From: Candidatus Parcubacteria bacterium
GTDB lineage: Bacteria; Patescibacteriota; Minisyncoccia; Phycocordibacterales; JAKAEA01
Assembly (NCBI GenBank): GCA_963806325.1
Contig: CAWDXL010000019.1
Span: 1-57,647 of the forward strand
DNA: 57,647 bases
Direction: 5' to 3'
This document shows, one piece after another, positions 51,492 through 57,647 of the stretch. The translations under genes and the position numbers were made by a program. Within the stretch, counting starts at the first letter, position 1. Each line of letters opens with the position of its first letter. Below the pieces are notes generated by a model. The model worked only from the letters and a program-made list of their open reading frames with translations, searched no databases and was not told the DNA's origin.

Positions 51492-51601
51492 TTAGGGGAC
51501 TCAATTTGTGAATATTGGCAGTGGTAATCAAATTATCCTGATGCTTGCTCCTTAGTAGCGTTTATATTTAATGTTTTTTGGTGAATGGTATTTTTTCTGT
51601 G

Positions 51602-51674
51602 TGCACGCACTAGGACTCGAACCTAGGACCGGCCGTGTATAAGACGGCTGCTCTACCAACTGAGCTATGCGTGC
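51602..51674 (-). tRNA. tRNA-Ile (anticodon UAU), CCA not encoded
   Basis: GCACGCA acceptor; TAGCTCAGTTGGTAGAGC D-arm; GCCGT-CTTATAC-ACGGC anticodon arm; GGTTCGAGTCC T-arm. Confidence 0.9.
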
Positions 51675-52603: not shown

Positions 52604-54807
52604 TTACTCAAAATGAATTTGATCATCTTCTTTTTCTATAATAGATTTCAAGAGAGGGTAATGGACAAGCTCTTGATCTGATTCAAGCAGCGTGCGTGCT
52701 TCAGTGCGTGCCGCTTCAACCATTTTCAAATTTTTCATTGCCTCCATCGCCAGGTCTGATACACCCCACTGCCGCCGGCCGTACAATTCTCCGGCGCCGC
52801 GCAGCTGCAAATCTGCCTCTGCTAATTCGAAACCATTTTTTGCCGTCTTGAGTGCTTTGAGCCGATCCATTGATTTTTCTGATTTTGTTTCCGAAAAAAT
52901 ATAGCAGTATGCCTGATGATGTGAACGGATAACGCGGCCGCGAAGCTGATGAAGCTGTGATAATCCAAATCTTTCCGCGCCCTCTATTATTATTACAGTA
53001 GCATTGGGAACATTGACGCCGACTTCTATCAATGAAGTTGCGACCAAAATCTGAATTTTATTGTCGGTAAAATCAGACATAATGTCTTCTTTGTCATTCG
53101 GTCGCATTTTGCCATGAATGATTGCGATTTCGTATTCGGGGAAAATATCTTTTTTTAATCGTTTCGCTTCTTCTTTTACGGATTTGGTATTTAACGCCTG
53201 TTCTTTTTCGGGATCAGGCTCGTCGATGCGCGGACAGATCACATATGCCTGTCTGCCGGCTCGCAATTCTTTGCGGATTTTTTCGTATGTCTCGGTTCTT
53301 TTTGTAGGAGGAATGATGTCGGTGATGATGGGTTTGCGGCCTGTTGGCATTTGGTCGAGGAGCGTGAGATCGAGATCGCCGAAAATGGTGAGCGCCAGCG
53401 TGCGGGGAATCGGCGTTGCGGTCATTGAAAGAAGATGGGGGATTCGGCCGTAGTTGTCGGCTTTGCGGGCGAGCAATTTTCGCTGCTTGGTGCCGAAGCG
53501 ATGCTGTTCGTCGATAATGACGTACGCCAGATGCTTAAACGCGACTGCTTTTTGAATGAGTGAATGAGTGCCGATCAAAATCGGAATCTCGCCATTCTTC
53601 ACCCACTTCAAAAGCTGTGTGCGGGAAATATCAGTCCAGCCCTGCGGATTGAATTTTGACGGAAATTTCTTGCAGCCGGATGAAGTAATGAGACCAATCG
53701 AAATGCCAAGATGGAAAAAATACTGAATGAATGATTCAAAATGCTGCTGCGCCAAAATTTCCGTCGGGCACATGTAGGCCACCTGAAGCGTGCCAAATTT
53801 TTGCGCAAATCCTGACGGGAATTTTTCCGAGGGCGGAAGCGTGGGGCGCGTAGTGACGGCGGCATAGGCTGTAGTCGCGGCGACAGCAGTTTTGCCCGAG
53901 CCGACATCTCCTTCGAGAAGCCGTGACATGGGCGTGCCGCGCTTAAAGTCATTAAAATGCCGGCGATGGCTTTTTGCTGAGCCCCCGTAAAAGCAAATGA
54001 AAATCGGGAAGTAAATTTTTCAATGTCTGCGGCATTTTTATCCATCACAAATGCCGGATTCTTCTCATTCTCGATGTGCTCACGCTGTTTGCGGAGTTGG
54101 ATCAAAAACACTTCCTCGAATGCAAAGCGCTTGCGGGCTGCCTCGCTGTCGGATGCTTTTTTTGGCGCATGAATCCAGATGAGCGCAGTTGTGAGCGTCG
54201 GAAGATTATACTTTTTGAGTACATTATCAGGGATTGGATCATGAAGCTGCTCCAAAATTTTGAGCGTGAATAATTTTTGCGCGGCATGGAAAAGCCACTT
54301 TGATGTTACTCCCTGAGTCTCGGAATAGACAGGGTAAAGAATCTGCTCGCCTCCTTCGTGAATGCCAAAAAGTGATGTACCGATTGTTTCCGGTGCCACC
54401 GATATTTTCTCAAATTCAGGATTTGATAAATAAAGTACACCCTGTTTGTCTTGCGAAACGGTGCCAGAAAATTTCGCGTACATATTTTCCTGGAGCATCT
54501 TGGCTACATATGGCTGATGAAACCATGCCGCGCGGATACTGCCTGTCGTGTCGGTAATCGTTGCTTTTGCCATCGGTACTTTTGTACGGAAACTTTTTTT
54601 GAGCTCGAGATTTGTGACTTGGCCGTAAATATTTGCCGTCTGCCCTTTTTCGAGATCTATAATATTTTTAAAATCAACAACATCCCCGTATCTTTGCGGG
54701 AAGTAGTAGAGCAAATTCTGAACTGTTTTTAGTCCAAGCTTGGCAAGACCCTTTTTTTGAATATCCGTGAGCCGGAATACCTCATCGATGCGCGTTTCGG
54801 GATTCAT
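52604..54807 (-). CDS. recG: ATP-dependent DNA helicase RecG (indel near 53950)
   Basis: GDVGSGKT, DEQHRFG, TATPIPRTL and QLHQLRGRV motifs; wedge domain in the upstream ORF. Confidence 0.95.
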
Positions 54808-56273: not shown

Positions 56274-56363
56274 GGAGACGTGGTGGAGTGGTCTAACATA
56301 CCTCTTTGCTAAAGAGGCAGGGGGTAATTCCCCTCGAGGGTTCGAATCCCTCCGTCTCCGCCA
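56274..56363 (+). tRNA. tRNA-Ser (anticodon GCU), CCA encoded
   Basis: GGAGACG/CGTCTCC acceptor; CCTCT-TTGCTAA-AGAGG anticodon arm; long variable arm; GGTTCGAATCC. Confidence 0.95.
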
Positions 56364-56421
56364 GGATTATTTAGTATCGGATGACGTCGAGGCCTATATT
56401 TATAGCCGTTTTTTTGAGGCA

Positions 56422-56459
56422 GTTCGAATCCCTTACCCATTGACCCCTCCGAGGTTCGA
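56422..56459 (+). repeat. Degenerate tRNA-Ser 3' fragments (att-like scars)
   Basis: GTTCGAATCCCT repeats 56340-56351; CCCCTCCGAGGTTCGA resembles 56330-56345. Confidence 0.55.
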
Positions 56460-56482
56460 GCTCTGCTTAAATTTTATTTTTG

Positions 56483-56491
56483 TGCTATAAT
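56483..56491 (+). promoter_or_regulatory. Extended -10 promoter of the ncRNA-RT unit
   Basis: TG-C-TATAAT consensus. Confidence 0.7.
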
Positions 56492-56814
56492 TTGAATATT
56501 CTCTGACAATTCCATAACCCCTTCGACACCGTCTTCTCATGAAGACTCTCCTTCATTGGAGACTAACCACTGTTTTCCCGACAATTACACACGTTGGCGT
56601 GAAGGTTGTAGGTAAAAGTTTTCGCCTGAAAGGGCGTAGACTGTAACCTTAAACCTGCATTACGTTCGTTTCGTTCAATGTATGCATATTCCTGAGTGAT
56701 ATATTCAAGCTGTGAGAACAGTTTGAAAAGGTCGAATTATTAGAGTAATTTTTGAAGGGGTTGCTATCAGGTTAAAAACTGGTAGGCCTCTTCAAATACA
56801 TTAACCAAATTAAT

Positions 56815-56967
56815 ATGGAAAAATTTTTAGCAAAGATGAAAGTCTTTGCAGAGATACAGAGTGTCTCGTTAACCATCTTAAAGCGGTTCGGGTACATAGT
56901 CTTATGGGTAACCATAATCATTAGGTATTTGTTACACACGCTTTGCTTTCAAACTCGTCGTCTTTAA
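56815..56967 (+). CDS. Possible 50-aa hydrophobic peptide embedded in the structured RNA
   Basis: MEKFLAKMKVFAEIQSVSLTILKRFGYIVLWVTIIIRYLLHTLCFQTRRL*; AT-rich leader. Confidence 0.35.
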   Translation: MEKFLAKMKVFAEIQSVSLTILKRFGYIVLWVTIIIRYLLHTLCFQTRRL

Positions 56968-56990
56968 ACTCAAGACGGCGTTTTGTTTTT
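56956..56990 (+). terminator. Intrinsic terminator directly before the RT start codon
   Basis: CGTCGTCTT-TAAACTC-AAGACGGCG then TTTTGTTTTT. Confidence 0.65.
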
Positions 56991-57647
56991 ATGAGAAAAA
57001 TATTTCATTCAAGACCTGATCAAAAAATTCTCTCTGTAGCAGAGCTTTCAACAGTATTAAATGTTTCTGAGAAAGATTTGTATAGATACGCTTCAACGTC
57101 TTCTTATTTTTATAATCAAATTCGATTGAAAAAGAGAGACGGAAATATTCGCATCATTAACGCCCCCTCAGAAGGGCTTAAAAAAGTACAAAGATCAATT
57201 CTTTCAAATTGTCTTAGTAAAAATAGGTTAATGAAATGTGTATACGGATGTTCTTCTGGTAAGTCAATTATCGAAAACGCAAAATCACACATGTGTTCAG
57301 AAAATATGATTAATTTTGATATTAATGATTTCTTTCCTAGTATTCATCACACGAAGATACACCGGCTATATCTAGATATTGGCTGCTCAAAAGAGGTTGC
57401 AGAAATGCTTTGTAAAATTACTACTCTTGATTATGTTCTTCCTCAAGGGTCTCCGACCAGTCCTTATATCTCGAATCTTGTTTTAAAAAACTTAGATGTA
57501 AGAATACTATTGTTAGCAAAGAAAAATAGACTCACTTATACACGGTATTTTGATGATATTACTATATCTGGAACTGATAGAGTATATTCTCTAAAAAATA
57601 CCATAGAAAAAATAATAATTACTGAAGGATACAAAGTAAAAAGATCA
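56991..57647 (+). CDS. Retron-like reverse transcriptase (3'-truncated by the window; not in the ORF track)
   Basis: 219 stop-free codons: KKRDGNIRIINAP..LKKVQR, NAKSH, FDINDFFPSI, LPQGSPTSPYISN, YTRYFDDITISG. Confidence 0.93.
   Translation, partial: MRKIFHSRPDQKILSVAELSTVLNVSEKDLYRYASTSSYFYNQIRLKKRDGNIRIINAPSEGLKKVQRSILSNCLSKNRLMKCVYGCSSGKSIIENAKSHMCSENMINFDINDFFPSIHHTKIHRLYLDIGCSKEVAEMLCKITTLDYVLPQGSPTSPYISNLVLKNLDVRILLLAKKNRLTYTRYFDDITISGTDRVYSLKNTIEKIIITEGYKVKRS

Follow-up and report, generated by a model that had tools for sequence, protein, structure and literature searches.

A putative compact retron with a large folded RNA and a candidate small-protein effector beside a tRNA gene in a Candidatus Parcubacteria genome

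The DNA analysed here, referred to as the window, is a stretch of 57,647 nucleotides (nt) from a Candidatus Parcubacteria bacterium (assembly GCA_963806325.1, contig CAWDXL010000019.1) whose 3' end holds a tRNA-Ser gene, a long folded RNA region, a small open reading frame (ORF) and the beginning of a reverse transcriptase (RT) gene. The reading that we favour on balance is a compact retron from an as yet unclassified lineage, with the organisation of type VI but lacking the helix-turn-helix (HTH) gene, and with a small protein as the effector of abortive infection. From its sequence features, the locus is probably an abortive-infection defence cassette that was inserted beside the tRNA gene. 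Among the matches listed, all members of the lineage seen so far come from bacteria with small genomes, which are Patescibacteria in every record that carries a name. By comparison with known systems, the layout of non-coding RNA (ncRNA), small protein and RT appears so far to be known from type VI retrons alone.

The RT belongs to the retron group of RTs and not to the group II intron or DRT groups. An earlier, sequence-only reading of this DNA had proposed a retron-type RT gene here, and profile searches bore this out. The frame carries the motifs NAKSH, LPQGSPTSP and YFDD and matches Pfam RVT_1 (E 1.3e-19). PADLOC retron RT models matched with E values from 1e-41 to 6e-67, led by RT_III-A (PDLC02946; E 5.8e-67, 224.2 bits) and followed by a second III-A model (211 bits) and by those for II-A (197 bits), XI (190 bits) and VI (188.0 bits). 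The NCBIfam model retron_St85_RT gave 185 bits (E 1.7e-54), which is below its 235-bit cut-off for a protein that is truncated here, and the closest solved structures in the PDB are the RTs of retrons Ec67 and Ec86 (E about 2-5e-26). The group II maturase model TIGR04416 reached 38.6 bits (E 7e-10; cut-off 300), Drt2 37.4 bits (E 1.7e-9; cut-off 390) and Drt3a 36.5 bits (cut-off 200). Since the PADLOC, NCBIfam and solved-structure matches favour retron RTs over group II and Drt2 proteins, the RT is of the retron kind. There is also a weak match between its N-terminus and HTH_17 (E 0.018).

The RT reading frame runs to the last base of the window, which is the end of contig C19 in a 23-contig, 0.92-Mb assembly that is 85% complete. 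Retron RTs are marked by NAxxH and by a VTG motif after the catalytic core; the VTG position falls beyond the contig end, and full-length relatives show VTG, ITG, VNG or ING there. The rest of the gene was not found elsewhere among the 23 contigs of the assembly, and contigs from sequencing runs gave only read-sized pieces of the cassette, none of which reached past the contig end; no RNA run was listed among those carrying the cassette. The nearest proteins in a collection of 5.8 billion are 60% identical and 307-308 residues long, with one of them labelled as a protein of a Patescibacteria metagenome-assembled genome. The contigs of these two proteins (P0001 and P0002) were not among the scan matches listed, so loci closer than those compared below exist.

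The catalytic motif YFDD had been regarded as atypical, which does not hold for this lineage. It is present in all 13 of the closest relatives aligned, and across 54 RTs compared the motif is YFDD in 39 (including all of P0001-P0029), YADD in nine, YVDD in three, and YSDD, YIDD and YCDD in one each. Being common to the whole clade, YFDD is a clade trait and not an anomaly. A literature search for this motif in reverse transcriptases returned no papers. In a midpoint-rooted FastTree phylogeny of the 54 RTs, built without named reference RTs such as those of type VI, the window groups with P0001-P0027 and with the loci L008, L009, L010, L016, L089 and L098, and the NDT loci (L013 and L095) and the PRTase locus (L092) fall outside this YFDD group.

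Related loci were drawn from a genome scan with one genome per species and from a metagenome scan, which returned at least 599 and at least 593 stretches, respectively. Among the matches listed, full relatives were found in the genome scan only: L008 from Ryanbacteria, with an RT 47% identical to that of the window, L009 from Nomurabacteria, L010 from an uncultured bacterium and L016 from Saccharibacteria. The metagenome scan added L089, a partial relative whose contig begins 190 nt before the RT. No RT on viral contigs was closer than 42% identity. In 60 relatives of this genome there were two weak retron RT matches (E about 1e-5), and five of 400 other genomes of the phylum matched the RT at E <= 1e-20, none above 38% identity. 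Retron RTs are therefore rare around this genome, in sampled hosts with reduced genomes. A literature search on retrons of Patescibacteria, Saccharibacteria or the candidate phyla radiation returned nothing that was on topic by title and the start of the abstract.

The RNA ahead of the RT has been demonstrated to be conserved, folded and of a family absent from Rfam. Folding of positions 56495-57000 gave a z-score of -6.81 with none of 100 shuffles folding as well, and positions 56498-56814 gave -6.50; the minus strand of 56498-56822 reached only -2.93. This confirms the fold-rich stretch claimed earlier and supports the description of the upstream transcript as multi-branched and about twice the usual length of a retron ncRNA. 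The corresponding non-coding stretches of L008, L009, L010 and L016 are 310-745 nt long, and with the window included the sense-strand z-scores range from -6.0 to -9.3 and the other strand is weaker. The upstream regions of homologs, which had been proposed as a check, therefore hold a conserved and strongly folded structure. Rfam gave no RNA match, including no intron family, in the window or in these four loci. A profile of the conserved core (nhmmer) detected the window and the same four loci only, and a rescan of 251 loci again found these four. At the DNA level, there were no relatives of the RNA in the genomes of 60 relatives beyond a 22-nt match at chance level, and BLASTN among the upstream regions gave short matches only.

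Transcription would start near position 56498, as judged from an extended -10 box that had been claimed earlier and proved to be conserved: the nonamer TGCTATAAT occupies the equivalent place in L009 and L010, and a variant, TGCTAAACT, stands in L016. A generic promoter scan of the window did not list this box because the scan requires a -35 hexamer. The box, about 490 nt of sequence to a hairpin with a U run and the fold score of the whole would be in keeping with the anatomy of a hybrid RNA for the predicted transcript.

The folded part of the transcript has a common architecture (Table 1). Its 5' leader pairs with the segment following the invariant AGGTCGA (shuffle fractions 0.000-0.090 in 5/5 sequences), and L016 retains this leader-to-core pairing with quite different sequence. 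Motif X, which is ACCTTCCCGA-like, is followed by two small hairpins in four of the five sequences, and then by a variable insert that measures about 85 to 200 nt in four members and is missing in L008. The hairpin before AGGTCGA has a GNRA loop (GAGA, GAAA or GUGA) in three of five. In an unfitted MAFFT alignment of the five sequences, hairpin B has 11 pairs, five of which show changes in both partners, and 94.5% of its cells are paired. For hairpin B and the terminal one taken jointly, the paired share is 84.9%, compared with at most 64.4% when the partners are slid. Motif X also has an alternative partner in the 5' strand of hairpin B, with which it can form 9-10 Watson-Crick pairs in 4/5 members (fractions 0.000-0.087), so that two mutually exclusive folds are possible.

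Several other pairings were considered and set aside. A canonical msr-msd of ~190 nt at 56818-57006, with an a1/a2 stem and a TAGC branch site, was dropped because its pairing is not conserved (at shuffle level, 0.18-0.96, in five loci) and the stretch is the small ORF. Pairing of the 5' leader with the region at the RT start was not significant (0.17-0.90), and its pairing with the start codon of the small ORF stood out in the window only (0.026; 0.24-0.91 in the others). Pairing between a complementary DNA of the core and hairpin B, with fractions of 0.003 and 0.04 in the window and L016 and 0.10-0.46 in the other three, is speculation.

A second, distant retron clade with YFDD occurs in similar bacteria (L022 2050-2300, L034 3780-4000 and L090 95-285) and has an ncRNA family of its own of ~200 nt. 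A GACCTCAGTGGATAAT-like segment is conserved just ahead of the RT start in these loci and is complementary to a segment directly after the putative a1 repeat. The upstream folds of L022 and L034, with z-scores of -3.6 and -3.1, do not follow the pattern of the four full relatives.

The sequence-only reading took all of the ~490 nt to be non-coding. This was not upheld, as the last ~155 nt are a conserved ORF for a small protein, and comparison across loci shows that this ORF should be regarded as a real gene. An ATG located 7-18 nt past hairpin B opens a frame in 5/5 loci (50, 60, 72, 83 and 63 codons). In the window, 24 nt separate its end from the RT start; in L010 the two overlap as ATGA, and in L009, L016 and L008 the overlap is 35-50 nt. 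The chance of so long an open frame in shuffled sequences is 0.007-0.024 per locus, with a product of 3e-10 for a start that was chosen post hoc. L089 has a sixth copy of the gene. The encoded proteins are hydrophobic, with 19-residue Kyte-Doolittle maxima of 1.8-2.6, and AlphaFold models that of L010 as a single helix over residues 4-54 (mean predicted local distance difference test score, pLDDT, 74). A profile search of 1.84 billion representative proteins yielded eight proteins of 63-83 residues, six of which were not among the queries, and the small protein of the window is 52% identical over 42 residues to the metagenomic protein P0045 (E 2e-11). The lack of a Shine-Dalgarno motif before the small ORF is no objection, since this genome rarely uses such motifs (4/38 long ORFs of the window). 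In L098, which has a sister-clade RT, an 86-residue ORF (1729-1989) overlaps the RT start; the leader fold of this locus is insignificant (z -1.86), and neither the RNA core nor the small-protein profile matches it.

A terminator had been claimed between the RNA and the RT, and the terminator scan located a hairpin with a T run there. The hairpin is present at the end of the small ORF in 5/5 loci, with nine pairs of which five are changed on both sides. Placed directly before the RT start, it may act as an attenuator or as a translational-coupling element.

Table 1. Features of the cassette and its flank in the window
Feature	Position	Strand	Basis or remark
tRNA-Ser, anticodon GCT; cassette flank	56274-56363	+	ARAGORN; Rfam tRNA 57.3 bits
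tRNA trailer	56364-56462	+	99 nt, 96% identical to the sequence that follows another tRNA, on contig C16
Extended -10 box TGCTATAAT	56483-56491	+	nonamer comparison across loci
Structured ncRNA of a new family, putative retron msr-msd	56498-56812	+	fold; conserved core
Closing stem	56501-56512 with 56734-56745	+	beats shuffles in 5/5 sequences
Motif X	56516-56527	+	ACCTTCCCGA-like
Two small hairpins	56531-56546 and 56547-56562	+	fold
Variable multi-hairpin insert	56563-56703	+	fold
GAGA-capped hairpin	56704-56727	+	fold
Invariant AGGTCGA	56729-56735	+	five-sequence comparison
Hairpin B	56751-56796	+	compensatory changes
Small ORF, 50 residues, hydrophobic helical protein, candidate effector	56815-56967	+	conserved frame; protein relatives
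Conserved hairpin (56956-56980) and U run (56981-56990)	56956-56990	+	terminator scan
Retron-type RT, truncated at the contig end (219 N-terminal residues of about 307)	56991-57647	+	profile matches; start codon ATG at 56991

Other candidate effectors are shown to be absent from the relatives. Neither PRTase nor NDT was found in the upstream part of the window or in L008, L009, L010, L016 and L089, and the genes flanking the related loci matched no PADLOC retron effector model. In the positive controls the same effectors were readily detected, namely a PRTase (E 1.7e-74) with a winged-helix protein (E 1.1e-21) in L092 and NDT in L013 and L095; in all three the effector lies upstream of an ncRNA of ~200 nt with clear a1/a2 repeats, and clades neighbouring that of the window likewise have PRTase and winged-helix or NDT genes upstream of the ncRNA. 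The PADLOC part of the DefenseFinder/PADLOC check proposed earlier thus recognised an RT_III-A protein without PRTase or NDT upstream, and the locus, as had been anticipated, fits none of the effector-defined types tested.

No gene after the RT is common to the related loci either. L008 is flanked by exonuclease VII and has a PCMT methyltransferase gene downstream of the RT, and L009 has tRNA-Gln upstream and a 352-residue protein of unknown function downstream. In L010, tRNA-Ser and tRNA-Glu genes lie directly 3' of the RT, the first beginning 62 nt past the RT stop, and a serine recombinase gene is directly upstream. The RT of L016 is followed by opposite-strand genes including tRNA-Gln, and the downstream genes of the distant L034 are also on the opposite strand. 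With a conserved small gene inside the locus and no shared effector gene after the RT, the effector likely lies within the locus and not downstream of the window, where it had been placed before, and the small protein is its likely candidate.

For the favoured reading, the mechanism would be as follows. One promoter would drive a transcript of ~490 nt whose first ~315 nt form the conserved folded RNA, the putative template and RT-binding part, closed by the long stem between the 5' leader and the segment after AGGTCGA. Hairpin B would come next, with the start codon of the small protein 7-18 nt further on, and the hairpin with the U run would precede, or be overlapped by, the start of the RT gene. 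The RT would copy part of the RNA into DNA, and the small protein would be a toxic effector that is kept silent or neutralised until phage infection, leading to abortive infection.

The closest described system is the hybrid RNA (hyRNA) of type VI retrons such as Retron-Vpa2 and Retron-Eco12. According to a 2025 preprint, the type VI operon runs from ncRNA through small protein and HTH gene to RT, and the template and the small-protein message form one structured hybrid RNA of ~470 nt (10.1101/2025.10.22.683967). The small protein is described there as a toxin with a hydrophobic C-terminal helix that is translationally repressed, and the multicopy single-stranded DNA (msDNA) as accumulating on infection only and as required for toxin translation; the RTs are placed in clade 3 (10.1101/2025.10.22.683967). 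With such a precedent, of similar RNA length and with a toxic small protein, the earlier suggestion that the locus is an undescribed kind of system was not sustained (10.1101/2025.10.22.683967). In the window, too, one structured transcript would carry the template RNA and then the small-protein gene, and the RT gene comes last. The predicted transcript is of similar size (about 490 nt compared with about 470 nt), its small protein likewise has a hydrophobic helix and a structured element directly ahead of the start, and short repeated motifs could link the template part to that element. By this analogy, the locus would work most like type VI.

The likeness is incomplete, and several points weigh against the favoured reading. 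An HTH gene is missing between the small protein and the RT, and no room is left for one, since the gap from the small ORF to the RT start is 24 nt where the two frames do not overlap. The III-A model gives the RT 224 bits and the VI model 188 bits, in the same order as in L008, L009 and L010. The wrap-around pairing of 5' and 3' ends drawn for Vpa2 is at shuffle level here (fractions 0.17-0.90). A G directly follows the closing stem in 4/5 sequences, but outside the usual sequence context, and the context of the G after motif X is unlike that in the canonical loci L092 and L013. L008 lacks both the two small hairpins and the variable insert. The covariation statistics are thin because the RNA has only five known members: 13 of 500 shuffles reach the covariation score of the unfitted five-row alignment and 73 of 500 reach the number of pairs changed on both sides. 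The small proteins match no PADLOC or Pfam model. Finally, the window stops within the RT, and a gene after the RT is possible in this genome.

The locus was not filed as type VI because the HTH gene is absent, the RT favours III-A, the small protein is unrelated to that of type VI by profile and the conserved 5'-3' wrap-around pairing is lacking; the host range differs as well, being small-genome bacteria here, Patescibacteria where named. With III-A and II-A retrons (e.g. Retron-Eco11 and Ec86) it shares the best RT profile matches, Ec86 among the best solved relatives and NAxxH, and it was not filed as III-A because there is no PRTase. Unlike here, where a tRNA gene lies upstream, those types keep their effectors (PRTase with or without a winged-helix protein, or NDT) upstream of an ncRNA of ~200 nt, and the three control loci L092, L013 and L095 lie outside the YFDD clade in the tree. 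Type IV retrons (Retron-Eco6/Ec48) also have a small hydrophobic protein as the only candidate effector. The gene for that membrane protein follows the RT gene or overlaps its 3' end, and the product combines a signal peptide with two transmembrane helices (PMC7736814), whereas the small gene here precedes the RT and its product is modelled as a single long helix. Orphan retrons such as the Ec107-like branch resemble the locus in having no recognised effector gene beside the RT and differ from it in that the RT here comes with an enlarged RNA and with a small gene that is conserved.

An orphan retron with a leader peptide would account for some of these features and, although unlikely, deserves serious consideration. 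The locus would then make the usual msDNA, the small ORF would be a coupling or attenuation device and the effector would act in trans or be absent. Consistent with this, the end of the small ORF falls at the RT start or past it (as ATGA in L010; by 35-50 nt in L009, L016 and L008), a hairpin marks this junction, the C-terminal likeness of the small proteins partly reflects the overlapping RT start, and orphan branches are discussed by Mestre et al. 2020 (PMC7736814). On the other hand, conservation reaches the part of the small protein that does not overlap, as seen in the 52% identity between the window and P0045 and in blocks common to L010, L089 and P0043, its hydrophobic helical character is constant, and in the window the 24-nt gap leaves no overlap that would couple the two frames. 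More doubtful than the compact retron itself is a further step, tentative and rather unlikely, in which the RNA and the small-protein message form one riboregulated hybrid RNA, so that copying of the template flips a switch and licenses the toxin; this would be a two-gene version of the type VI logic without HTH, in a different RT clade and in very small genomes. Motif X paired before AGGTCGA, with hairpin B formed, would be the closed state, motif X could alternatively pair with the 5' strand of hairpin B, and reverse transcription followed by removal of the copied RNA would permit translation of the small protein.

A non-defence role, in which the locus is part of a tRNA-targeting integrative element and its RT and RNA act in maintaining or transferring that element, seems improbable. 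Cassettes adjoin tRNA genes in the window, L009, L010 and L016, the interval from the tRNA to the promoter contains fragments resembling tRNA ends in the window and L009, and L010 has its serine recombinase directly upstream; no recombinase was seen in the other loci, however, and retron RTs are a family with a known role in defence. Integration at tRNA genes is common among defence islands, so a tRNA neighbour does not discriminate between the two. Quite improbable, too, is the proposal that the whole ~490 nt are one non-coding RNA of a new RT-ncRNA system with its effector beyond the window. The whole stretch does fold well (z -6.81), its 3' part taken alone reaches z -4.53 and the contig ends inside the RT, but the conserved open frame has real protein relatives and the related loci are without a common gene after the RT. 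A group II intron, or a DRT2/DRT9-type RT with its ncRNA, is suggested by a long structured RNA with GNRA loops ahead of the RT ORF, and DRT systems do use upstream ncRNAs. Against this stand the maturase and Drt2 scores far below their cut-offs (38.6 of 300 and 37.4 of 390 bits), the absence of any Rfam intron family from the window and four relatives, and the tRNA that begins 62 nt past the RT stop in L010 and leaves no room for intron domains V-VI; this explanation is highly improbable and, at the level of RT family membership as judged by profiles, refuted.

If the favoured reading is correct, the hybrid-RNA logic of retrons, in which a template and a toxin message share one transcript, would extend beyond type VI RTs, which would suggest that this layout is older or more often reinvented than thought. 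The locus itself adds a new structured RNA family and a new small-protein family, and represents a very compact candidate defence cassette, of about 1.6 kb, in hosts with reduced genomes. For retron-based editing tools, there could also be practical interest in a lineage whose needs may be limited to an RNA, a small protein and an RT.

The setting of the cassette suggests a small inserted island beside a tRNA gene. The neighbouring tRNA-Ser of the earlier reading was confirmed by ARAGORN and Rfam; it is followed by its trailer, and cassette-specific sequence begins at about 56463. Upstream of the RNA there is this tRNA and then genes on the opposite strand. An island is suggested by the C16-like trailer, by tRNA genes next to the cassettes of L009, L010 and L016 and by the L010 recombinase, and it would also account for the assembly break inside the cassette. 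The same trailer of ~99 nt stands behind two different tRNA genes, in the window (56364-56462) and at G000:C16:73464-73562 (L002/L175), and holds a hairpin with a T run and two fragments resembling tRNA T-arm ends, which may be scars of integration sites. In L010, the cassette sits between the serine recombinase gene (14-847) and the tRNA-Ser/tRNA-Glu pair (2363-2673), an arrangement that looks like a minimal integrative island.

Elsewhere in the window, a minus-strand ORF of 399 residues (53608-54807) ends in ~100 Arg/Pro-rich residues of low complexity, which may reflect a frameshift in a helicase-like gene, and ARAGORN located a tRNA with anticodon TAT (Ile) at 51601-51674.

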